DNA of 41,787 bases from a virus (Duplodnaviria; Caudoviricetes), in the IMG/VR virus record IMGVR_UViG_3300025759_000197, positions 1 through 41,787 of that record. One strand, written 5' to 3'. A model generated the notes under the pieces. That model did not search any database, was not told the origin of the DNA, and saw only the letters and a program-made list of their open reading frames with translations. This document shows positions 8,722 through 26,640 of this stretch, piece by piece; position 1 is the stretch's first letter; the number at the start of each line of letters is the position of its first letter. The position numbers and the translations under genes were made by a program.

Positions 8722-9134
8722 AACATACTAAAGAAGCAATTAAGAAAGAAGAAGGTTTCCGAATGGAGACTTATCATTGTACAGAAGGTCATCTCACAGG
8801 TGGCTATGGACACAAGATGCTAGAAGGCGAAGTACCACCTACAGATAAAGCAGGGTGGGATAAGTTATTTGAAAGAGACTTTGCTAAAGCTGTATCTGGT
8901 GCAGATGAAGTATTAAAAGAATGTCCTGCTGATATAAGTGAAACTGCAAGAAATCTTGTGGTGGAGATGGTGTATCAAATGGGTCAATTCGGTGTATCTA
9001 AATTTAAGGGTATGCTTAAAGCATTATCAGAAAAAGATTACAAACAAGCGTCAGTAGAAATGTTAGACAGCAGGTGGGCTAAACAGACACCTAATAGAGC
9101 TAACAGAATGGCTGAACGAATGGCGAATATTTAG
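8712..9134 (+). CDS. Endolysin, T4-lysozyme-like muramidase
   Basis: EEG..Y.C..G.LT.GYGH with E-x8-C-x5-T catalytic spacing, MVYQMG, EMLDSRWAKQTPNRA. Confidence 0.92.
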   Translation: MDIEHTKEAIKKEEGFRMETYHCTEGHLTGGYGHKMLEGEVPPTDKAGWDKLFERDFAKAVSGADEVLKECPADISETARNLVVEMVYQMGQFGVSKFKGMLKALSEKDYKQASVEMLDSRWAKQTPNRANRMAERMANI

Positions 9135-9463
9135 TAGAAAAATCTGTGGGGGTATACGTTATAATGAAAACCACAGTTTCCCCCACACGCCTGACGCGAG
9201 GGCGTAGAAAATGATTATTTTTCAAGTATATCGCGGCTGTCGTGCCTGTATATACGCAAAGGAGTTCATATCCTTGCACACATGGGCGTTAACTTTTTTT
9301 ATTTTTGCGTGTGTGAGAGATAGTCTGTTTTTTTGCTTTCTCTTTATCTATACGCACAGACACACGCAAAGCACCACAACAAACACCACCACAAGCCACA
9401 CAGAGCCACGCACAGAGCAATCAAGGGAGCAACGCAGGGGTTGGGTCATGTTGTTTTAAATAC

Positions 9464-9481
9464 TAAAGTTGCACTATTAGA
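9464..9481 (+). promoter_or_regulatory. Putative phage-RNAP promoter (phiOR-like position)
   Basis: TAAAGTTGCACTATTAGA, identical 18-mer at 16324; two-base variants at 26638 and 40883. Confidence 0.8.
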
Positions 9482-9584
9482 TGAGAGCAAAAGAAAAGAA
9501 TATACTCTGTGTATCTCTTTGAGTATCTCTTCAAGTACATCATCAAGTAATACATCAAGAGACAATCAACATTAATATATTAAT

Positions 9585-9740
9585 ATGAATAGAACTAACT
9601 GGTTAAAGACAGACGCAGGAAAACTCTACAAAGCCAGAACAAATAAGAATTACAGACAAAAGAAAAAAGAAGACAAAAAGAAATCTTTGAAAGTTAATAA
9701 ATCTTTTTCTTTTCACTTTCCCAAAGAACACAATCCATAA
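9585..9740 (+). CDS. Small basic protein (51 aa) in the T7 gene 19.5 position, not in ORF track
   Basis: MNRTNWLKTDAGKLYKARTNKNYRQKKKEDKKKSLKVNKSFSFHFPKEHNP*; follows the promoter; no clear SD. Confidence 0.5.
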   Translation: MNRTNWLKTDAGKLYKARTNKNYRQKKKEDKKKSLKVNKSFSFHFPKEHNP

Positions 9741-10063
9741 GTGATTTAATTAATATTCCTACATAATCCCATTTAATCCTTTAATCTCCCATAATTGCCT
9801 ATTTATAGGGTTTATTAACTATTTTACAGGTGCGACACTGTGTCAGGTTCTATTATCCACAAATACATATATTCAAGGGGAATGTTTATTTTTTTAAAAT
9901 TTTTTGATAATCTACAGGCTCTATTAGCCATTTCAAAAAACAGTGCCAAAGTCGGCTGAAAACCTGCGGATAGGTTTTCTCTGGGCTAGTTGTCTCTAGG
10001 GACTTTGGAAAATCCACTCGGAGTTGGGAACGACCTTTAACGAGGGTTAGCCACTCCAAAAGT

Positions 10064-10125
10064 TTGTGGTTGTCTGTATCTATTAGATACACTGAAGAGG
10101 CTTCGCAAAGCCGAAACAATCAACA
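10064..10125 (+). ncRNA. Hammerhead ribozyme, type III
   Basis: GUC site 10072-74; stem I TGTATC 10075-80/GATACA 10086-91; CUGAAGA 10092-98; stem II GGCTT/AAGCC 10099-10112; GAAA 10113-16; stem III TGGTTGT 10067-73/ACAATCA 10116-22. Confidence 0.9.
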
Positions 10126-10147
10126 ATCAACAATAGGAGTGAACCAC

Positions 10148-10318
10148 ATGAGAATTTCACATGCAGTTCAAAAGATACAAGGTGCTATCTCTCTGGCAAA
10201 GTTCAAAGACGAACAAGCCAAGAAGGAACACTTTGACACCTACTCCAAAGCGAAGACAAAGGAACAAAAAATAAAATTGTTCCGAGAAGCTATCGCAGAA
10301 GGTTGGGTTAGTGCCTAG
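10148..10318 (+). CDS. Early protein (56 aa), hypothetical
   Basis: SD AGGAG 10135-39 supports ATG 10148 rather than the track start at 10064, which would run through the ribozyme. Confidence 0.75.
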   Translation: MRISHAVQKIQGAISLAKFKDEQAKKEHFDTYSKAKTKEQKIKLFREAIAEGWVSA

Positions 10319-10469
10319 ACAATTAAATTTGTTTAGTGCTGAAGAGTTGGCGGACTGTTATTTACATTCAGTTGTAATTAAGAGAGTTCGCCAAGCTCTA
10401 CACAAAGAGAAACAGAAAAAACAGAAACTTGGTCAGGTGATAAAGTTTCCTATTAAATTTGTTTCTTAA
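10311..10469 (+). CDS. Early protein (52 aa) with QLNLF motif, not in ORF track
   Basis: GTG start; MPRQLNLFSAEELADCYLHSVVIKRVRQALHKEKQKKQKLGQVIKFPIKFVS*; TAATG coupling to the next gene. Confidence 0.65.
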   Translation: MPRQLNLFSAEELADCYLHSVVIKRVRQALHKEKQKKQKLGQVIKFPIKFVS

Positions 10470-10648
10470 TGTTTTACAGTCCAAAGTATTGGGCGGAGTT
10501 AAAAGCCAAACGCAAAGCAGAAGAAAAGAAACTTGAAATTGTTTCTAGTGCAGAGCAGGACGCAGAAGCCAAACAAGAACAGGCAGAGGCGGACAAGTTG
10601 GCAAAAGACAAATTCCACCAATGGAAAGTGAAATATTCTAAAATCTAA
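10469..10648 (+). CDS. Early coiled-coil protein (59 aa), not in ORF track
   Basis: MFYSPKYWAELKAKRKAEEKK...FHQWKVKYSKI*. Confidence 0.7.
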   Translation: MFYSPKYWAELKAKRKAEEKKLEIVSSAEQDAEAKQEQAEADKLAKDKFHQWKVKYSKI

Positions 10649-10710
10649 AACAATGGGCGGTGCAATATCCGCCCTTGTTCAATCAACAATCAACAACAAT
10701 GGAGACCACA

Positions 10711-10995
10711 ATGAACGTAAGACAAATGACAAGCCCAAGAAGCCACAACGCTGTGGCAAATCAATTCATTATTAACGACAACAATGGAAATCAATATTTT
10801 CAAAGTTATCGTTCTTTAATAGTAAAAAAATGTGCTGATGGCAGAATATTCCTAGACGAGAACACTTGGGACTATTCAAGAACGACAGGAAAATACAGAA
10901 ATGAATTTCTTGGCGAGAATACAGCAGAGACACGAAAAAAGATAAAAAGCGGAGAATACATTTTGACCGACTTAAACAGCAAGGCGGTGGCGTAA
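10711..10995 (+). CDS. Conserved phage early protein, function unknown
   Basis: SD GGAG 10701-04; ANQFII, FQSY.S.I, WDYSRTT.KY motifs recurrent in phage early regions. Confidence 0.8.
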   Translation: MNVRQMTSPRSHNAVANQFIINDNNGNQYFQSYRSLIVKKCADGRIFLDENTWDYSRTTGKYRNEFLGENTAETRKKIKSGEYILTDLNSKAVA

Positions 10996-11159
10996 TGTTT
11001 AGAGCAATTTTAATTGCAATAGCTTTTGCACTTTGTTTTGCTTTGATGTTTCTAGGTGTTATTATTTCAATTCATTTTAGCACTTGGCTAGGTCTAGCAT
11101 TAACAGCAGTGGCAACTTTAAAATTCTGGTCATACTTACCAGAGTTAAACCAAATATAA
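10995..11159 (+). CDS. Early two-TM membrane protein (54 aa), not in ORF track
   Basis: MFRAILIAIAFALCFALMFLGVIISIHFSTWLGLALTAVATLKFWSYLPELNQI*; TAATG coupling. Confidence 0.7.
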   Translation: MFRAILIAIAFALCFALMFLGVIISIHFSTWLGLALTAVATLKFWSYLPELNQI

Positions 11160-11350
11160 AACTTGAAGCGGTGGCAGGTCTACCGCTTTGAGATTTATAT
11201 TGCGTAAATAACTTGCGAGGATAAGCAAGGATAAAGCAATAAAAATCAAATGTTGTCTAGTTTTGCGTTAACTCTTCGGTGGTTCTTTAATCACAGTCAA
11301 CGCTTCACTAGACGACATTTTTAAATCAACAATCAACAAAGGAGAAAAAC

Positions 11351-11581
11351 ATGTACACAAGTATAGAAAATGTAAAACTAACTGAAGTTGAAACAGAAAA
11401 AGGCAAATGGAAAGGCAAAAAGTTTGTCAATTATAAAAACCCTATTGAGAAAAACAAAAAAGTTGTTTTTGAAGATGAATACTCAAACTTAATGGATATT
11501 GCTTCAGAAGTAAAACACGCTTCAGAGAGAAGCCCTCACAAAGTAATTAGGGTTAGCTTTGATGTAAGTGCGGAGTGGTAA
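11351..11581 (+). CDS. Early protein, hypothetical
   Basis: ORF track; SD AAAGGAG. Confidence 0.8.
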   Translation: MYTSIENVKLTEVETEKGKWKGKKFVNYKNPIEKNKKVVFEDEYSNLMDIASEVKHASERSPHKVIRVSFDVSAEW

Positions 11582-11585
11582 TTGA

Positions 11586-11756
11586 GTGAGTTATAAAAAA
11601 TACAAAATAAGAGATGGCGTTCACATACCAAGCGATAAATTTCGCAAAAATTGGGACGCCATCTTTGGCAAGAAACCAAAAAAACCTAAAAAAAACACAA
11701 TTACAAAAAGCAAAACTGACGAGGTTTTAATAACCGAAACGCCTTCTAAAAACTAG
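11586..11756 (+). CDS. Small basic early protein (56 aa), not in ORF track
   Basis: GTG start with GGAG SD; MSYKKYKIRDGVHIPSDKFRKNWDAIFGKKPKK...ETPSKN*. Confidence 0.65.
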   Translation: MSYKKYKIRDGVHIPSDKFRKNWDAIFGKKPKKPKKNTITKSKTDEVLITETPSKN

Positions 11757-11777
11757 GCGGCGTATTTTGCACGTGAA
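11700..11777 (+). ncRNA. Hammerhead ribozyme, type I
   Basis: Stem I GCAAAA 11710-15/TTTTGC 11765-70; CUGACGA 11716-22; stem II GGTT/AACC 11723-35; GAAA 11736-39; stem III ACGCC 11739-43/GGCGT 11759-63; GUA site, cut after A11764. Confidence 0.88.
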
Positions 11778-11794
11778 TATCGCATAAAATCTTC

Positions 11795-11824
11795 TTGCAC
11801 ATATTATGTGCGACAGGATAGCAT
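11795..11824 (+). promoter_or_regulatory. Putative sigma70 promoter with overlapping palindromic operator
   Basis: TTGCAC-N18-TAGCAT; perfect palindrome GCACATA-T-TATGTGC over the -35 and spacer. Confidence 0.55.
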
Positions 11825-11865
11825 ACGTTATAAAAATAACACATAAGCAAAAAGAAAGGAGAAAC

Positions 11866-11940
11866 GTGAGAAAACATATAGTATATACGTTTAACAATGC
11901 GTGGTGTAATCAATTATTATTAATGCCAAATATAACTTAA
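11866..11940 (+). CDS. Possible 24-aa peptide
   Basis: Strong SD GAAAGGAG plus GTG; MRKHIVYTFNNAWCNQLLLMPNIT*. Confidence 0.4.
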   Translation: MRKHIVYTFNNAWCNQLLLMPNIT

Positions 11941-11953
11941 AAAAGGAGTAAAA

Positions 11954-12082
11954 ATGACAATAAATTTTATTCTTTTTAAAGTCTATATTGAAAAATATAG
12001 TAATTGGAGTAATCTAAAAGTGAGTAAGGATAAATACGAAACAATGGTTGATATTGGCTATTGGAAATTTTATTTATCTTAA
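11954..12082 (+). CDS. Small protein (42 aa), not in ORF track
   Basis: SD AAGGAG; MTINFILFKVYIEKYSNWSNLKVSKDKYETMVDIGYWKFYLS*. Confidence 0.65.
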   Translation: MTINFILFKVYIEKYSNWSNLKVSKDKYETMVDIGYWKFYLS

Positions 12083-12150
12083 CATTAAACAAAGTGTGGT
12101 TGCTTCACTTTGTAAAAACAAGAGACAACAAACAGAAAGAAGAAAGACTA

Positions 12151-12486
12151 ATGACAAGTAGCGGATTAAATCTATTAAAAATAATAGAAGAAATGCGAAA
12201 GTTTGATACACAAATTGAGGCACAGGCTATTGCTGTGTTTTTGTTTGTTGCGGTTCATGGTGGAAAAGAAGGCGTTGCCATGCAAACTATAAGTGACGAC
12301 CTAGACATGGCTCAATCTTCAGTGTCAAGAAACTGTTATAAATTAGCAGATGTAAATAGACACAAAAAGACTGGGATAGGTTTAGTACAGACTTTTGAAG
12401 ACCCAATGGAAAGACGAAGGAAGTTAGTTAGTCTTACATCAAAAGGCAAGAGAGTTTACAATACTCTTTTGGAATGGGTTAAATAA
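12151..12486 (+). CDS. MarR-like winged-HTH regulator (candidate repressor or recombination directionality factor)
   Basis: ISDDLDMAQSSVSRNCYKL helix-turn-helix and DPMERRRKLVSLTSKG wing; adjacent to integrase; ATG 12151 preferred over TTG 12061. Confidence 0.85.
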   Translation: MTSSGLNLLKIIEEMRKFDTQIEAQAIAVFLFVAVHGGKEGVAMQTISDDLDMAQSSVSRNCYKLADVNRHKKTGIGLVQTFEDPMERRRKLVSLTSKGKRVYNTLLEWVK

Positions 12487-12505
12487 CAATGAAAGGCGGT
12501 ACAGT

Positions 12506-13387
12506 ATGCAGAGTACAAATCCAAAACTGCTTACAGAAATACACCGCAAACTTACTCTTAAAGGGTGGGAAAAGTTACAACAAAAACGAGCCGAAAAAAT
12601 AATTACAATGTTAGGTCGTGGAATGTTAGTAACTGAAGTAACTGATAATCATGTAGAACATGTTGTTGATACTCTTGAAAACAGAGGTTATCAAGGTTCT
12701 ACAATTAATCGGTATCTGTCCTCACTCTCAAAGATGTTAAGATATGCCAATCAGAGACAATCTATTTATCATCTTGATAGAATGCCTCACATTGATTGGA
12801 ATAGAGAGGACAATGGTAGAGAACGATACCTTGAACTAGAAGAAGAAAAAGAAATTATTAGATTGTTAACCGAATGGAATATGGTTGACTATTTAGAATT
12901 TTTTTTAGTTCTAATAGACACAGGTATGAGACTTGGCGAAGCGTTATCTATTAAGAAGTTAATGGTTCATAACAACAATGGAAACTATGTTGTTAATTTA
13001 CCTGCTAGTGTTACCAAAAATGGTGAACCTAGAGGTGTACCACTAACAGAACGAGCAAAGTCTATTGTTGTCAAACTGTTGGACAAAGCGGAAAGAAACG
13101 ACTTGGTATTTAAACACTTAAAATATTGGACGTGTGAGAATACTTGGAGACGTTTAAGAAAAGCAATGAACCTTGAAGAAGACAAAGAGTTTGTCATTCA
13201 TTGTTTACGACATACTTGTGCTACTAGGTTGGCTCAATCAGGGAAGGTAGAACTTCACATGATTGGTCAAATGCTAGGTCATAAGTCATGGAAGATGATA
13301 AAAAGATACGCCCATTTAATTCCAAATAATTTAATGGGTGCAGTAAATGTTCTTAATGGGATTAATAAAAATATGCAATCCAGTTAA
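12506..13387 (+). CDS. int: Tyrosine recombinase/integrase
   Basis: DTGMRLGE (R), TKNG (K), HCLRHT (HxxR), LGH and RYAH (Y) catalytic set intact. Confidence 0.96.
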   Translation: MQSTNPKLLTEIHRKLTLKGWEKLQQKRAEKIITMLGRGMLVTEVTDNHVEHVVDTLENRGYQGSTINRYLSSLSKMLRYANQRQSIYHLDRMPHIDWNREDNGRERYLELEEEKEIIRLLTEWNMVDYLEFFLVLIDTGMRLGEALSIKKLMVHNNNGNYVVNLPASVTKNGEPRGVPLTERAKSIVVKLLDKAERNDLVFKHLKYWTCENTWRRLRKAMNLEEDKEFVIHCLRHTCATRLAQSGKVELHMIGQMLGHKSWKMIKRYAHLIPNNLMGAVNVLNGINKNMQSS

Positions 13388-13473
13388 GGATTAGTTCTAG
13401 TATGAGGATAGTTGATTAATTATGTTTATTAATACAAGTAAAAGAGACTGTTCCACTGTCGCATGGGTACAAT

Positions 13474-13514
13474 AGGATTTGCAATCCTCTGCGTAACCAT
13501 TCCGCCACGTTGCC
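13474..13514 (-). other. attP core: 5' half of tRNA-Cys(GCA)
   Basis: Minus strand GGCAACGTGGCGGAATGGTTACGCAGAGGATTGCAAATCCT gives acceptor 5' strand, D arm and anticodon arm with GCA; no T arm follows; directly downstream of int. Confidence 0.88.
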
Positions 13515-13639
13515 ATCTCGTTTATTTTATAAGTAAACACTCAACTATTCTCTACTACATCTTTAAAAAATAATCAAAGGACTAAACTTAATTTGTAAGC
13601 CATTCCTTTGGTGCATCAATCAACAAATAGGAGAATAAA

Positions 13640-16099
13640 TTGAAAATACTAGAAATAATGCCGACATACAAAGACCAACACCTAAATGAAACTATGTCTA
13701 AAGATTTAGGTAAAAATAGAACAAACAAAAGGCGTATATCCCATATTGAAAGAGGTGAAGAAAGTGTAACTTCCTATGGTAAAGTCATAGTAGCCAATAC
13801 TATACGACCTTTAGCTATCGCAATAGCAGAATGGGTAGAACAAAGTATTCAAAATGTTCATTCCAAAACTCCCATTGCTCTTAAATATATCTCCCAAGTA
13901 GACCCAAAGATACTGGCGTTGATAACTGCAAAGCATGTAATCAATACTATTACCCATACTAAAAATCTAACTGCTACTGCCATAACACTAGGCGGAAGAG
14001 TTGAGACAGAGATAAGTTTAAAAAACTTTAAGGCTCTTAATCCTGAACTATACGAAACTGTAAGAAGAGATTTAGATAAAAGGTCTTGGAACTACAATTA
14101 TAAAAGAAGAAAGTTAAGAGAAAGTGCTAAACGAGACAGTGTTATGAAGTGGGAAGAATGGTCTACTACTGAAAGACTACATGTTGGAATGGAATTGATA
14201 GGTCTGCTTATTGAAAGTACAGGACTTGTTGAAATCTCCCAAGAACAACATAAGCATAAAACTGTTAAAGTTATTAAACAAACTGAAAAGACTAAACAGT
14301 GGATTAACAATAGAAATGACTTTAACGAACTATTAAACCCTGAATACTTAATGATGGTTATGCCACCAAAAATGGTTGAAGATGGGAAAATTTCTGGTCA
14401 TGGATATTGGACTGATGAACTCCCAGATTTAGATTTAGTTAAACAAAAAGGTAAGAAATTTAACCAAGAGATAGAAGGTTTTTCTATGCCTGAAGTAACT
14501 AAAGCTATTAACTTAATGCAGGGTACAGCTTATAAAATTAATAGATTTGTCCTTAATGTAATGCAAAATGCTTGGGACAAAGGAATGTCTATTGGTGGTA
14601 TGCCACCCATAGAAAACCTGCCATTACCTAATAAGCCTCATAATATAAGTGAAGACACTGAAGAGGGCAAAGCCGCACTCAAAAAGTTTAAGAAAGATAG
14701 TGTCATTGTTCACACAGAGAATAACAGAATGGTATCAAAGAGGTTATTGTACGCTAAAATTATTTGGTTAGCCCAAAAGTTTGTACAATATCTAACACTT
14801 TATTTCCCACTACAATTAGATTTTAGAGGTAGGGCTTATTGTGTTCCTGCTTTTTTAAACTATCAGTCTATTGGTGGTGCTAAAGCATTGCTTAATTTTT
14901 CAGAGGGCAAAGCTATTACTAAAGAAAATAGAGGTGTCTTTTGGTTAGCTGTTCATGGCTCTAACATGTGGGGTAATGATAAAGTCTCATTAGAAGATAG
15001 AGAAAAATGGGCTTACGATAACCTAGAATGGATAAAAGCCTGTGGTACTGACCCAATAAGTAATAGACAATGGGAAGACGCAGATAGTCCTTTTCAGTTT
15101 CTTGCTTTTTGTGATGAATGGAAAAGATACCATGACACAGGAGATGGCTTTGTTTCTCATATACCTGTAAACGTAGATGGCTCTTGTAATGGGCTTCAAA
15201 TTTATTCTCTTTTATTAAGAGATAAAGTTGCAGGTAAATTAGTTAACTGTATTCCTAGTGAAACACCGCAAGACATATACCAATTAGTTGCTGATGAAGT
15301 TATTAAAACTTTAAAAGTTAAAGCTGAAGAAGGTGATGACTTGGCGAAGAAATGGTTAGCTTATGGTGTTAAGCGTTCTACTTGTAAAAGACCTATTATG
15401 ACAATTTGTTATGGGTCTACTAGATATTCTTGTACTGACTTTGTAGTAGAAGATTTAACTAAACGAAAAGATAAAGGTGAAATGCACCCTTTTGATGACA
15501 TGTTTAAACCTGCTACTTATTTGTCTAAAATTATTTGGTCAAGTATAGGTGAAAACTTAAAGTCAGCTAGACAAGGAATGGATTTTTTACAAGGCATAGC
15601 GAAAGTTATTGCTAAAACAGGTCAGCCAATACATTGGACTACACCTGTTGGATTTCCAGTATTTCAATTCTATCCTGAAATGAAAAGTAAAAGAATAAAA
15701 TCAAATCTTATGGGAGAAGTTATTATGCCTCAAATAAAAGAAGAAACTGAAGGTACTGACAAACTACGAACTCGTAATGCGGCGGCGGCTAATTATGTTC
15801 ACAGCCTAGATAGTGCTTGTATGATTAGAACTGTTAATATTGCAAAAGAAAAAGGTATTAATAATTTTTGTAATGTGCATGACAGCTTTGCTACCCATGC
15901 TTGTGATATTGATAAACTTAATGAAAGCATAAGAGAAGCATTTGTAGAAATCTTTAGTGAAGATTTATTTGGCAAATTAAAAAAAGATGCTTCGCTTTTA
16001 GTGGAAGACAAGGAAGCTGTTAAAAGGTTTCCTGAAGTTCCTGAAAATGGCGACTTGGAATTGGCTTTACTACATCAATCCAAGTTTTTCTTTGCCTAA
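13640..16099 (+). CDS. Single-subunit DNA-directed RNA polymerase (T7 gp1-like)
   Basis: DFRGRAY, VDGSCNGLQ (motif A), RSTCKRPIMTICYG (motif B), VHDSF (motif C); TTG start with SD AGGAG. Confidence 0.98.
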   Translation: MKILEIMPTYKDQHLNETMSKDLGKNRTNKRRISHIERGEESVTSYGKVIVANTIRPLAIAIAEWVEQSIQNVHSKTPIALKYISQVDPKILALITAKHVINTITHTKNLTATAITLGGRVETEISLKNFKALNPELYETVRRDLDKRSWNYNYKRRKLRESAKRDSVMKWEEWSTTERLHVGMELIGLLIESTGLVEISQEQHKHKTVKVIKQTEKTKQWINNRNDFNELLNPEYLMMVMPPKMVEDGKISGHGYWTDELPDLDLVKQKGKKFNQEIEGFSMPEVTKAINLMQGTAYKINRFVLNVMQNAWDKGMSIGGMPPIENLPLPNKPHNISEDTEEGKAALKKFKKDSVIVHTENNRMVSKRLLYAKIIWLAQKFVQYLTLYFPLQLDFRGRAYCVPAFLNYQSIGGAKALLNFSEGKAITKENRGVFWLAVHGSNMWGNDKVSLEDREKWAYDNLEWIKACGTDPISNRQWEDADSPFQFLAFCDEWKRYHDTGDGFVSHIPVNVDGSCNGLQIYSLLLRDKVAGKLVNCIPSETPQDIYQLVADEVIKTLKVKAEEGDDLAKKWLAYGVKRSTCKRPIMTICYGSTRYSCTDFVVEDLTKRKDKGEMHPFDDMFKPATYLSKIIWSSIGENLKSARQGMDFLQGIAKVIAKTGQPIHWTTPVGFPVFQFYPEMKSKRIKSNLMGEVIMPQIKEETEGTDKLRTRNAAAANYVHSLDSACMIRTVNIAKEKGINNFCNVHDSFATHACDIDKLNESIREAFVEIFSEDLFGKLKKDASLLVEDKEAVKRFPEVPENGDLELALLHQSKFFFA

Positions 16100-22892: not shown

Positions 22893-23080
22893 TAAAAGAA
22901 CCACCTCACTATGCTAACAATAAAATAGAACCTATTGATTATATTATATCTAATAAATTAGATTTTTGTGAAGGCAATGTCGTTAAGTACATAACACGTT
23001 GGCGTAAAAAAGGTGGGATAGAAGACCTTAAAAAATGCAAACAATATGTGCAATTCATATTAGATAAGTATGAGGCTTAA
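22880..23080 (+). CDS. DUF3310 protein (related to the T7 gp1.7 nucleotide kinase domain)
   Basis: PPHY, IEPID, FCEGNVVKY..R...KGGIEDLKK. Confidence 0.85.
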   Translation: MEDLIKEPPHYANNKIEPIDYIISNKLDFCEGNVVKYITRWRKKGGIEDLKKCKQYVQFILDKYEA

Positions 23081-23448
23081 TGCTTGAACATAAACATATT
23101 TTAATTAGGGCAACTGTTAAGCGTCCACCTATGCAGATAGATACAATCAAACAATGGATAAGAAATTTAGTTGAGAAATTAAACATGAAACCATTAGGTG
23201 AAACTGTAGCTGTCTATGTAGATAAGAAAGGCAACAGAGGATTAACTTGTTTACAAGCTATTGAAACATCACACATAGCTCTACATTCGTGGGACGAAGA
23301 CAGTCCACCTGTTATTCAATTAGATGTCTACACTTGTAGTCATTTGAATAAACAAGTTGTGTTTGATGCACTAGAAAAATTTGAACCAATAAACATTAAT
23401 TACTTAACATTAGATAGAGAAAGGTACTTGGAAATAAAACACTTATGA
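23080..23448 (+). CDS. speD: Pyruvoyl-dependent decarboxylase proenzyme, SpeD/AdoMetDC family
   Basis: GLT....IETSHIALHSW, QLDVYTC. Confidence 0.8.
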   Translation: MLEHKHILIRATVKRPPMQIDTIKQWIRNLVEKLNMKPLGETVAVYVDKKGNRGLTCLQAIETSHIALHSWDEDSPPVIQLDVYTCSHLNKQVVFDALEKFEPININYLTLDRERYLEIKHL

Positions 23449-25196
23449 TAGATTATGATAGAGATGAGTTGCTTACAGATTTTGGTAAGACTACTTTAAA
23501 AGATAGGTATTTATTACCAGACGAAACTTCACCGCAAGATGGATTTATGAGAGCCGCTAAAGCGTTCTCTGATAATGATGAGATGGCGGAACGTATTTAT
23601 AACTACGCTTCTAAATTATGGTTTATGTTTTCTACACCTATTTTATCTAATGGCGGAACAAACAGAGGTATGCCTATCTCTTGTTTCTTAAATTATGTTG
23701 GTGATAGTAGAGAAGGATTAACAGGACACTACACAGAGAATGCTTGGTTAGCATCTATTGGTGGTGGTATCGGTGGCTATTGGGGACATGTAAGAAGTGA
23801 TGGTGTTAGTACGTCAGGTGGTTCACAATCATCTGGTTCTATTCCATTTTTACACGTTGTTGACAGTGAGATAATGGCATTCTCACAAGGTAAAACAAGA
23901 CGTGGAAGTTATGCGGCTTACATGGATATATCACACCCAGAGATTATAGAATTTTTAGAAATGCGTAAGCCTAGTGGTGGAGACATACATAGAAAATGTC
24001 TTAACTTACATCACGCTATAAATATTTCAGATGAGTTTATGCACTTGATTGAAAAGTGTATTGCTGAACCTACTTATGATGACAGTTGGGATTTAATAGA
24101 CCCACATACTAATAAAGTTGTAAGAACTGTATCAGCAAGAGAGTTGTGGCAAAAGATTTTAGAAATTAGAGTTGCTACTGGTGAGCCTTACATTTCATTT
24201 ATAGATACTATCTATGAAGGAATGCCTGAAACACAAAAGAAATTAGGATTAAATGTACATCATTCTAATTTATGTACAGAGATAACATTACCTACTGATG
24301 AACATAGAACAGCAGTGTGTTGTTTGTCTTCTGTAAATTTAGAAAAGTTTGATGAATGGAAAAATAATAATTTATTTATATCTGATTTAGTTAGATTTTT
24401 AGATAACGCTTTAACTTACTTTATTGATAATGCACCTGATAGTGTATTCAGAGCAAAGTTTAGTGCGGCTAATGAAAGAAGTATTGGGCTAGGAGCTATG
24501 GGTTTCCACGCTTATTTACAATCTAAAGGTATTCCTTTTGAAGGTGCGTTAGCTAAATCAATGAACTTAAAAATATTTAAACACATTAAAGAACAAGCAG
24601 TAGCAGAGAGTAAAAGACTTGGTATTAAAAGAGGTGAAGCTCCTGACATGGAAGGTACAGGCATGAGGAATGCACACTTGTTAGCAATAGCACCTAATGC
24701 TTCTTCATCTATTATATGTGGTACTACTTCTCCATCAATAGAACCTTTTAGAGCAAATGCTTATGTACAAAAAACAATGTCTGGTTCTTTCTTGGTAAAG
24801 AATAAATATTTAGAAAAATTATTAGATAAAAAAGGTATCAATACAGATAAGACTTGGACTTCTATACTTGCAAACAGAGGTTCAGTATTACATTTAAAAG
24901 AATTATCTGATTATGAAAAAGATACTTTTAAAACAGCTATAGAAATTAACCAACAGTGGGTAATAGAACATGCGTCTGACAGACAAAAGTTTATTTGTCA
25001 GGCACAATCAGTAAATGTTTTTGTACCTGCTGATGTTAATGTTAAAGAGCTACATGACATACACATGTTAGCTTGGAAACGAAAACTTAAAACTTTGTAC
25101 TATTGTAGAAGTGAAGCAATTAAACGTGCAGAGTTATTATCAAAGAAAATAGAAAGAACAATCATACCAGAGGCAGATTGTTTAGCTTGTGAGTAA
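23445..25196 (+). CDS. nrdA: Class I ribonucleotide reductase alpha subunit (no ATP cone)
   Basis: TPILSN, ISCF, SNLCTEI, IAPNASSS, KTLYY, C-terminal CLAC. Confidence 0.96.
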   Translation: MIDYDRDELLTDFGKTTLKDRYLLPDETSPQDGFMRAAKAFSDNDEMAERIYNYASKLWFMFSTPILSNGGTNRGMPISCFLNYVGDSREGLTGHYTENAWLASIGGGIGGYWGHVRSDGVSTSGGSQSSGSIPFLHVVDSEIMAFSQGKTRRGSYAAYMDISHPEIIEFLEMRKPSGGDIHRKCLNLHHAINISDEFMHLIEKCIAEPTYDDSWDLIDPHTNKVVRTVSARELWQKILEIRVATGEPYISFIDTIYEGMPETQKKLGLNVHHSNLCTEITLPTDEHRTAVCCLSSVNLEKFDEWKNNNLFISDLVRFLDNALTYFIDNAPDSVFRAKFSAANERSIGLGAMGFHAYLQSKGIPFEGALAKSMNLKIFKHIKEQAVAESKRLGIKRGEAPDMEGTGMRNAHLLAIAPNASSSIICGTTSPSIEPFRANAYVQKTMSGSFLVKNKYLEKLLDKKGINTDKTWTSILANRGSVLHLKELSDYEKDTFKTAIEINQQWVIEHASDRQKFICQAQSVNVFVPADVNVKELHDIHMLAWKRKLKTLYYCRSEAIKRAELLSKKIERTIIPEADCLACE

Positions 25197-25309
25197 TGGG
25201 AAAGTATTTAATAATTTTAATACTGCTGACAGGTTGTTCACAGATTAATGATAAATTTAATCCTGCAACTACTGTAATAAAACACATAATAAAAGGAACA
25301 AATGATTAA
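25196..25309 (+). CDS. Small lipoprotein (37 aa), not in ORF track
   Basis: MGKYLIILILLTGCSQINDKFNPATTVIKHIIKGTND*; lipobox LTG-C; TAATG coupling to nrdA. Confidence 0.7.
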   Translation: MGKYLIILILLTGCSQINDKFNPATTVIKHIIKGTND

Positions 25310-25535
25310 ATATATATTAGAAATTATATATCATTATTCAACAGCTTTAACATCATGGTCGTGGACTAAATTATATGGAGATAGAAATAAAAAAATGAAA
25401 ACAATACCAGATACTATAGATAGTATAAAAAAGAAAATAAGAAAACTTCAAGTATTATCATTGTACTACAGAGAAGGAATAGTAGGAGCATGGGTAGGAC
25501 TTTTATTAGGAATAATAATAGGAATGCTAATATGA
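25302..25535 (+). CDS. Small membrane protein
   Basis: SD AAAGGA; C-terminal TM GIVGAWVGLLLGIIIGMLI. Confidence 0.6.
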   Translation: MIKYILEIIYHYSTALTSWSWTKLYGDRNKKMKTIPDTIDSIKKKIRKLQVLSLYYREGIVGAWVGLLLGIIIGMLI

Positions 25536-25693
25536 CCTACAGTTCATTATTTGATGACATAGATAAACCAAAAAGAAAAAGAAGAAAAAAAAGAACACCA
25601 AAACAATCTGTATTATGGACTGTGTATCATACAGTCTTGGCAGTTGAATTATTAATCATAATTATAATAGAAGGAATTGAGTTATTAAGATGA
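25532..25693 (+). CDS. Small membrane protein with basic patch
   Basis: ATGA-coupled start at 25532; KPKRKRRKK then hydrophobic helix. Confidence 0.6.
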   Translation: MTYSSLFDDIDKPKRKRRKKRTPKQSVLWTVYHTVLAVELLIIIIIEGIELLR

Positions 25694-26640
25694 GCTTATT
25701 TAAAACTAGAGCATACTACAAACCATTTGATTACGAATGGGCTTTTGAAGCATACGATATGCAACAAAAAATGCACTGGCTACCATCTGAAGTTCCTTTG
25801 CATGAAGATGTAAGAGATTGGAATGAAAGATTGTCTGAACCTGAAAAGAATTTAATAGGTCAGATATTAAAATTTTTTACACAAGGAGATGTAGATATAG
25901 CACAAGCCTATTTAGATAAATACATTCCAATGTTTAAACCACCTGAAGTTAGAATGATGTTATCTGCAATAGCTTCTAGTGAAGCAAACCACGCACATAG
26001 TTATTCATTATTAAATGATACGATTGGTTTACCAGATAAAGAGTATCAAGCATTCCATGAATATAAACAAATGGCTGATAAGCATGAGTATCTTTTTAAA
26101 TCTAAAGGAAAAGGTATAGAAGGATTAGCTAGAGAGATAGCTTGTTTTTCTGCATTTGGTGAAGGATTACAACTGTTTGCATCTTTTGCTATGCTTCTTA
26201 ATTTCCAAAGATATGGAAGAATGAAGGGAATGTGTCAGATAGTTACTTGGAGTATTAGAGATGAGACACACCACGTTGAAAGCATGATTAAATTGTTTCA
26301 TCAATTAATAAAAGAAAACCCAAATATTTGGACAGAAAAATTTAAAGCAAGTATCTATCAAACAGCTAGAGATATGGTTGACCTTGAAGATAAATTTATT
26401 GATTTAGCTTTTGATATGGGTGGTATTAGAGGTTTGAAACCAGAAGAAGTTAAACAATATATTAGATATATAGCTGATAGAAGACTTCTACAGTTGTCTT
26501 TAAAACCAAATTATAAAGTAAAAGATAATCCACTTGGTTGGTTAGAATGGGTATTAAATGGTGTAGAACACGCTAATTTCTTTGAGAATAGAGCAACTGA
26601 ATATAACAAAGGTACTGTAACAGGTAATCTTTGGGAGTAA
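25690..26640 (+). CDS. nrdB: Class I ribonucleotide reductase beta subunit
   Basis: HWLP.EV, FFTQGD, EANHAHSY, EGLQLF, RDETHH, NFFE.R.TEY. Confidence 0.96.
   Translation: MSLFKTRAYYKPFDYEWAFEAYDMQQKMHWLPSEVPLHEDVRDWNERLSEPEKNLIGQILKFFTQGDVDIAQAYLDKYIPMFKPPEVRMMLSAIASSEANHAHSYSLLNDTIGLPDKEYQAFHEYKQMADKHEYLFKSKGKGIEGLAREIACFSAFGEGLQLFASFAMLLNFQRYGRMKGMCQIVTWSIRDETHHVESMIKLFHQLIKENPNIWTEKFKASIYQTARDMVDLEDKFIDLAFDMGGIRGLKPEEVKQYIRYIADRRLLQLSLKPNYKVKDNPLGWLEWVLNGVEHANFFENRATEYNKGTVTGNLWE

Follow-up and report, generated by a model that had tools for sequence, protein, structure and literature searches.

The window analyzed here, a 41.8-kb virus record (IMGVR_UViG_3300025759_000197, 41,787 nt, taken whole), comes from a temperate T7-like pelagiphage of the HTVC019P type, that is, a phage of SAR11 bacteria, and carries a block of seven small early genes bracketed by two hammerhead ribozyme motifs on the same strand. 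In the reading favored here, to which a probability of about 0.7 is given from sequence comparison, these hammerheads are self-acting mRNA processing sites, equivalents of the RNase III sites of phage T7, and serve to split the early message. They are likely processing sites because the motifs are conserved in related SAR11 phages and because, at the same positions, they are exchanged with long hairpins. An original prediction on this DNA had proposed self-processing of the early transcript instead of T7-type RNase III cutting, and this part of it is still the best reading.

A descriptor for canonical hammerheads of types I, II and III, run on both strands of the window, found exactly two, a type III motif ahead of the early block and a type I motif at its end (Table 1). 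The former shows a GUC triplet at 10072-10074, stems I, II and III of 7, 5 and 7 bp, and the core CUGAAGA...GAAA, and the latter a GUA triplet at 11762-11764, stems of 6, 4 and 5 bp (with stem III reaching about 9 bp if one mismatch is passed), and the core CUGACGA...GAAA. Both satisfy the hammerhead core C3-U4-G5-A6-N7-G8-A9 / G12-A13-A14-A15 and present an NUH cleavage triplet with the A15.1-U16.1 pair. For a possible tertiary contact between stems I and II, the loops are AUU and CGCA in the type III motif, and the type I motif has a loop II of UUAAU and an A run upstream of stem I. A loose match appeared in 4 of 200 dinucleotide shuffles, and none of the 200 gave one at the stringency that each of the two motifs reaches. 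In the predicted ensemble of the type III motif, the pairs of stems I and II have probabilities of 0.73-1.0 and those of stem III of 0.33-0.64. The predicted cuts fall 73 nt upstream of the ATG at 10148 and 8 nt past the TAG ending at 11756, delimiting a fragment of 1690 nt that holds the seven open reading frames (ORFs), the seventh of which starts at GTG. The types, the positions of the predicted cuts and the distances originally given agree with the sequence, the two motifs being confirmed by the descriptor, the shuffles and the covariation described below; what had been missed is that the type I motif lies mostly within the last codons of ORF7 (11586-11756). Hammerhead cleavage leaves a 5'-OH and a 2',3'-cyclic phosphate, and RNase III leaves a 5'-phosphate and a 3'-OH. 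The downstream product of the type III cut would thus begin with the 7-bp stem I hairpin and a 5'-OH, and the upstream product of the type I cut would be closed off by the hairpin of stem III, with a 2',3'-cyclic phosphate at its end.

Neither motif was matched by Rfam, whether the whole window was searched at the gathering threshold or positions 9000-13800 at E<=10, and in 20 loci no hammerhead match (Hammerhead_1, _3, _II, HH9, HH10 and RAGATH-1) rose above the gathering threshold; a RAGATH-1 match in locus L004 stayed below it, with 32 vs 56 bits. By score, therefore, the window motifs belong to no Rfam hammerhead family. The descriptor and two custom covariance models were used because Rfam found no hammerhead in the window.

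The relatives were represented by 166 loci, many of them redundant, collected via marR, integrase and GenBank records. They gave 222 descriptor matches in 487 kb upstream of the integrase gene, none in 817 kb downstream of it, and none on the minus strand. The distinct matches number 104 (59 of type I, 27 of type III and 18 of type II), and the triplet is GUC or GUA in 102 of them. Among the type I motifs found in the last position (33 distinct), 97.7% of stem cells are paired and 7 of 20 pairs show changes on both sides; for the type III motifs (27 distinct) the figures are 95.9% and 12 of 17 pairs, it being understood that the percentages are partly built in, as these sets were selected by a descriptor or pattern requiring pairing or arm sequence, and that related phages do not count as independent. 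The informative part of the covariation is that the stems change and the core does not: the catalytic core is invariant in the alignments and the stems are variable. Because the stems change while the core stays constant, the motifs are very likely under selection as catalysts. The core conservation and covariation that the original prediction had proposed to look for in related genomes were thus found for both sites. One custom model added two type III motifs in which a compensatory U3-A8 core pair stands instead of C3-G8 (L053 2153-2211 and L055 2642-2700) and one with about 64 extra nt in stem II (HTVC121P, locus L003, 660-779). In 5 of the 104 distinct matches stem II has a U.U mismatch at its base; variants of this kind, which may be slower, were seen in both type I and type III (L046 901-961, L063 4689-4749, L065 2421-2483 and 4436-4496, and L131 1874-1944). 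No canonical hammerhead was found upstream of the integrase gene in HTVC309P, HTVC120P, S42-C7, LUZ100, BB8 or BOESR1, and a single U.U-variant hammerhead occupies this region in S28-C10. Since LUZ100 has none, its mapped terminators are not hammerheads.

The layout was compared in 73 loci, chosen for a long early region and an integrase identity of at least 45%, which were grouped at 97% identity into 40 clusters (L010, L026 and L124 may lack the 5' end of the early region). The III-I arrangement of the window is found in 8 clusters; three to five hammerheads are present in 15, type I only in 8, type III only in 3 and none in 3, and the I-I, II-II and III-II patterns occur once each. At least one hammerhead is present in 37 of the 40 clusters; the first is of type III in 26 of the 37 and the last is of type I or II in 34 of the 37. 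The III-I bracket is one case of a variable layout, and the twin arrangement is not special. The notion of a dedicated twin-ribozyme cassette was not upheld, given that a cluster may carry anywhere from 0 to 5 hammerheads and that long hairpins lie inside the bracket in all 8 III-I clusters. The order of the types makes sense for linear products, since after a type III cut the downstream RNA starts with stem I as a 5' hairpin, and after a type I cut the upstream RNA finishes with stem III as a 3' hairpin; from its topology, a type II cut would leave hairpins on both products. In six loci with no last hammerhead (L001, L002, L003, L007, L009 and L010), a stem with a purine-rich loop of 14-16 nt was observed about 300-480 nt before marR.

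The second line of evidence is the exchange between hammerheads and hairpins. The early genes of these phages are modular, each module being headed by an AAUCAAC-rich leader and GGAG, and phages without the first type III hammerhead have at the same site an irregular hairpin of 60-140 nt, denoted H1 or H1b. For the first slot, 26 of the 40 clusters have only the type III hammerhead, 10 only the long hairpin, 4 neither, and none both. For the slot before the homologues of ORF1, which could be compared in 33 of the 40 clusters, 14 have only a hammerhead and 16 only a hairpin (H2 in 14 and H1b in 2), 2 have neither, 1 is cut off, and again none has both. When mapped onto a marR tree built from 32 clusters (the other 8 of the 40, truncated or distant, were omitted), the state of the first slot changes 6 times, and at least 3 of these changes are forced by strong branches. 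It differs even between sister phages, as within the pairs HTVC121P (hammerhead) and HTVC105P (long hairpin), L008 and L009, and L011 and L012, the last of which have identical marR genes. Fisher values for these data take no account of kinship and are given no weight.

The hairpin H2 (32 distinct sequences) forms about 21 bp of duplex around an A.A mismatch that was fixed by the search pattern; 96.3% of its cells are paired and changes on both sides affect 10 of 20 pairs, spread over both halves of the duplex. It is also present in HTVC309P and HTVC120P, which have no hammerhead, and at least one H2 lies inside the bracket in each of the 8 III-I clusters. The bracket of the window holds three hairpins (H3, H2 and H4), so the 1690-nt piece would probably be cut further. 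H1, H2 and H4 have the shape of a T7-type signal, namely an irregular intergenic duplex of about 22 bp or longer ahead of a ribosome-binding site. The T7 R1.1 signal is a 60-nt irregular hairpin that is cut by an alphaproteobacterial RNase III (PMC6121014), and full contacts of RNase III need about 22 bp (PMC1540722). Size, position and the T7 precedent thus argue for the hairpins as candidate RNase III sites. H2 shows an invariant stretch of A-U, A-U and G-C pairs that recalls the proximal box of E. coli, in a provisional register and with SAR11 rules that may differ. A search of the hairpin slots of five loci for other ribozyme classes gave no Rfam match at E<=1. Like the RNase III signals of the T7 early mRNA, the pelagiphage structures are intergenic and stand just ahead of ribosome-binding sites; unlike those of T7, some of them are ribozymes, and the RNA polymerase gene lies outside the processed block.

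The favored reading can be set out as follows. One early transcript would be made by the host RNA polymerase. The type III site would cut off a structured leader of about 130 nt and give the downstream RNA a hairpin-capped 5'-OH end, the long internal hairpins H2 and H4 would be cut by the host RNase III, and cutting at the type I site would detach the block from the marR-integrase unit, giving it a 3' end with a hairpin and a cyclic phosphate as its cap. The message would end up as pieces of one to three genes, and the likely gain would be that stability and translation could be set separately for each swappable early-gene module.

Host RNases were looked for in genomes, some of them incomplete, of the likely hosts. 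Five small genomes tried at first as hosts had no match to the phage attachment site. Two genomes of 1.2 Mb and 29% GC (G118 and G276) match it (98% over 42 nt), and because of this match their family is taken as the likely host family. RNase III (TIGR02191, over the cut-off) was identified in 13 of the 15 genomes from the likely host genus; all 5 genomes tested for RNase E/G and for an RNase J-like gene have both, the latter over the cut-off in 2. As RNase III is present in the likely hosts, the ribozymes would not be a substitute for a missing RNase III.

Several points weigh against this reading. The preference for ribozymes in a host that has RNase III is left unexplained, 3 of the 40 clusters lack any hammerhead, and the 3' hammerhead has been lost in the close relatives HTVC021P, L008 and L009. 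For the type I motif, the predicted ensemble has stem I formed to only about 30%, and the limits of the covariation counts given above apply here too. No pile-up of ends was visible in 8 RNA runs, which were contigs only. The hairpins were assigned to RNase III by shape and position only, and a hairpin of at least 20 bp is found in 44 of 85 leader slots without a hammerhead vs 38 of 300 random windows, length being a weak test. Finally, many copies of H2 close with a run of U (4-8 U among the last 9 nt), and the H2 of the window is listed as terminator-like, which makes a terminator possible.

This last point leads to an alternative in which the hammerheads do cut, their hairpin replacements work as partial terminators or stabilizing stems, and the job shared by both is an expression gradient over the early block. 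The short stem with a U run found where the last hammerhead would sit in HTVC105P, HTVC121P, L007 and L010 fits such a gradient, as does the conserved structured leader upstream, which could be an antiterminator. Yet the lower stem of H2 covaries and its pairing is kept where the U run is broken, and H1, H1b and the H4 of the window have no U run after the stem and occupy the first slot or directly precede a leader, positions from which a terminator would silence the genes behind it; altogether this explanation appears unlikely. Less probable still is that the motifs are mainly boundary repeats that aid the recombination of early-gene modules and cut little in the cell. Gene order in the early block varies from one relative to another, with repeated leaders and hairpins at the gene boundaries, H3 and H4 have the look of stem III remnants without a core, and several relatives lack one or both motifs, all of which would suit recombination. 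Against it, the core is invariant and the stems are variable, which recombination does not require, the triplet is GUC or GUA nearly throughout, and a compensatory core pair exists. A regulated switch has also been considered, in which cleavage, governed by ions, a phage protein or the translation of ORF7, would act on the lysis-lysogeny decision via read-through into marR and integrase. Consistent with it, the last hammerhead lies 240-530 nt before marR in most relatives and overlaps the end of ORF7 in the window, and the possibly slower U.U variants exist. The overlap with ORF7 is not conserved in the relatives, no ligand-binding domain is attached to the motifs, and marR and integrase may have a promoter of their own downstream, as the two genes do in LUZ100 (PMC10134795), so that we regard a switch as highly improbable.

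The same low standing is given to the proposal, contained in the original prediction, that the III-I pair excises a 1690-nt RNA which is then circularized by a ligase or by reverse hammerhead chemistry. The ends left by hammerheads are suited to RtcB-type ligation (general knowledge; PMC6765202), a III-I pair without inner hammerheads is found in 8 of the 40 clusters, and in 6 of 49 neighboring hammerhead pairs the ends match by 6-7 bp and could re-form a stem (among them the I-I pairs found in L017, L055 and L165). These matches may reflect duplication only, yet single-gene circles may be possible in those phages. For self-ligation, the two ends would have to rebuild a hammerhead. In the window, by contrast, the hybrid stems that the fragment ends could form have 1, 2 and 2 bp, those of the other seven III-I clusters have at most 3 bp, and the H2 inside every III-I bracket is a further obstacle. 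RtcB was found in 0 of 15 genomes of the likely host genus and in 1 of 251 of the family (a single RtcB-like gene, G326:C1:135791-137023, L189), vs 22 of 121 across the class, and none of the 44 phage proteins scanned is an RNA ligase; the usual ligase for these ends is thus mostly not found, the host search having been aimed at RtcB only. The joint from 11764 to 10075 was absent from the 8 RNA runs, a weak test given contigs of patchy cover. A search for the predicted junction in metagenome contigs (mostly DNA, hence also weak) returned one match, which was rejected as unrelated GC-rich DNA with flanks unlike the window. RNA contigs identical to the window were found in two studies, spanning 10136-10521 (X1) and 10092-10618 (X2) and covering ORFs 1-3; they show presence in RNA libraries and nothing further. 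Among the RNA pieces listed, none spans 10074 or 11764, and since their stops are scattered, one of them at an adapter, and the cover is patchy, this is not evidence. Retrozymes and Avsunviroidae likewise have two same-strand hammerheads around a unit-length RNA, with the same end chemistry, and they repeat one ribozyme, which gives matching monomer ends, and use a host ligase (PMC6765202, partly general knowledge). Unlike them, the window has a pair of different types with unrelated stems around a coding, variable insert, and the ligase is mostly missing.

The arrangement itself, of which the original prediction knew no description in Autographiviridae, has a precedent. Perreault and coworkers reported in 2011 that genes or short gene blocks in prophages often have several hammerheads at their flanks, and proposed that these divide long transcripts of the phage into mRNAs the length of an operon or a gene; the triple cluster of Agrobacterium tumefaciens C58 was cleaved in vitro and in E. 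coli, and spliced or circular products were considered and sought in the prophage clusters, none being detected (data not shown there), which also speaks against a circle in the window (PMC3088659). The gene order in Fig. S2 of that work is tail, small genes, MarR and integrase. The window resembles those prophage clusters in having at least two same-strand hammerheads that flank a short gene block in a temperate phage, with MarR and integrase nearby; it differs from them in that pelagiphages are free-living and cultured, that ArdA is missing (0 of 4 genomes), and that types III, I and II come in a fixed order. The replacement by long hairpins at the same slots is a further difference, not described in the sections of PMC3088659 consulted. 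A 24-nt motif taken from the primers of that work matches three alphaproteobacterial prophages with the order terminase, hammerheads, MarR and integrase, whose terminases are 52-58% identical to that of the window and two of which have a T7-type RNA polymerase about 30 kb upstream on the same contig. From the gene content of these three other prophages, the C58 element was probably a temperate T7-like prophage too, and the arrangement has probably already been described in this phage group, unnamed. Hammerheads lie between terminase and marR in L169 (7992-11081, III-II-II-II), L167 (10334-10387) and L168 (9968-10026), T7-like prophages in Devosia, a Rhizobiales isolate and Mesorhizobium. Dataset S1 of PMC3088659 lists hundreds of environmental type I sequences, and some of the marine motifs described here may already be among them; the searched part of it gave no match to "Pelagibacter". 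A literature search, with most subscription papers outside its reach, returned nothing that deals with hammerheads in either pelagiphages or Autographiviridae, or with the hairpin exchange.

The features of the region are collected in Table 1. The identification of the phage, in agreement with the original prediction, is based on T7-type terminase, RNA polymerase, primase, DNA polymerase, capsid and tail genes, on the presence of a MarR-like regulator and a tyrosine integrase, and on the nearest annotated records, those of Pelagibacter phages HTVC021P and HTVC048P (86% over 85% of 9700-13400), classified on file as Autographiviridae, Pelagivirus.

Table 1. Features of the early region of the window and of the genes that follow it.
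Feature	Position	Strand	Basis or remark
Structured 5' leader: three-way junction (9946-10008) and second hairpin	9944-10062	+	Folds, homologues, covariation
Type III hammerhead	10067-10122	+	Descriptor scan, alignment, fold; predicted cut after C10074
AAUCAAC-repeat leader and GGAG ribosome-binding site	10117-10147	+	Sequence
Early ORFs 1-3	10148-10318, 10311-10469, 10469-10648	+	ORF list
Short hairpin H3, 11 bp	10649-10679	+	Fold
Early ORFs 4-5	10711-10995 (DUF8033-like), 10995-11159 (hydrophobic)	+	ORF list, family comparison
Long hairpin H2, about 21 bp with A.A mismatch	11153-11201	+	Fold, z -7.1; candidate RNase III site
Long hairpin H4, 28 bp counted, irregular	11248-11320	+	Fold, z -5.4; candidate RNase III site
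Early ORFs 6-7	11351-11581, 11586-11756	+	ORF list
Type I hammerhead	11710-11770	+	Descriptor scan, alignment, fold; predicted cut after A11764
Candidate host promoter serving a small ORF, marR and integrase (TTGCAC-18 nt-TAGCAT)	11795-11824	+	Suggested by sequence
MarR-like regulator	12151-12486	+	Profile matches
Tyrosine integrase	12506-13387	+	Profile matches
Partial tRNA (GCA anticodon), likely attachment site, between integrase and RNA polymerase	13464-13514	-	tRNA match
T7-type RNA polymerase	13658-16099	+	Profile matches

The early block lies between the lysozyme gene on one side and marR on the other. The structured leader has no Rfam match and precedes the first slot in hammerhead phages and hairpin phages alike; its homologues, found by nhmmer, include L004 391-493, L022 1888-1986 and L068 2152-2248, and in 20 sequences 6 of the 8 pairs of its outer stem show changes on both sides. 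It could be an antiterminator, or a small RNA released by the first cut. The AAUCAAC/GGAG leader recurs before ORF4 (about 10681-10710) and before ORF6 (about 11324-11350). As for the hairpins, H3 resembles stem III of the internal type I or II hammerheads of relatives, without the catalytic core, and H2 belongs to the family that takes the place of hammerheads in relatives. H4 is directly upstream of the ORF6 leader, and its arms, of a kind that recurs several times per genome, resemble stem III of the last type I hammerhead, again without the core; H3 and H4 may therefore be decayed ribozymes reused as hairpins. Another long hairpin, inside ORF7 (11610-11666, +), is kept with altered sequence in relatives with and without the 3' hammerhead. 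None of the seven early ORFs has a Pfam family; ORF3 and ORF4 match only PHROGs of unknown function, with ORF4 looking like DUF8033. The label of host-takeover block given to them at first is consequently not supported, as no early ORF has a family of known function. The promoter-like sequence after the type I motif has similar counterparts in many relatives and scores below the threshold of the consensus scan, which in turn performed at chance level (15 found vs 14.8 expected). Elsewhere in the window, positions 23080-26640 (+) encode an S-adenosylmethionine decarboxylase and both subunits of ribonucleotide reductase.

The role of bacterial and phage hammerheads is still open, and a review from 2019 described the function of bacterial ribozymes as largely elusive (PMC6765202). 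The clustered layout and the processing hypothesis date from 2011; the repeated exchange of hammerhead and hairpin among cultured phages makes function testable, natural matched pairs on the same hosts being available in HTVC121P vs HTVC105P and in HTVC019P or HTVC021P vs HTVC022P. As Rfam misses these motifs, they are under-counted in genome annotation. A circular mRNA would matter more, but the evidence opposes it. A wider and distinctly tentative picture can be drawn, in which one cultured phage genus would swap, back and forth, a ribozyme and the substrate of a protein enzyme at the same mRNA positions, choosing between a 5'-OH and a 5'-phosphate to set the lifetime of each module against host RNase E/J; the first cut might also free a structured RNA of about 130 nt with a job of its own, in antitermination or counter-defense, and the few relatives with matching neighbors of the same type could close single-gene circles. 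If the ribozyme and hairpin cuts are equivalent, RNA and protein catalysis would be trading places, in phages of the most abundant marine bacteria.

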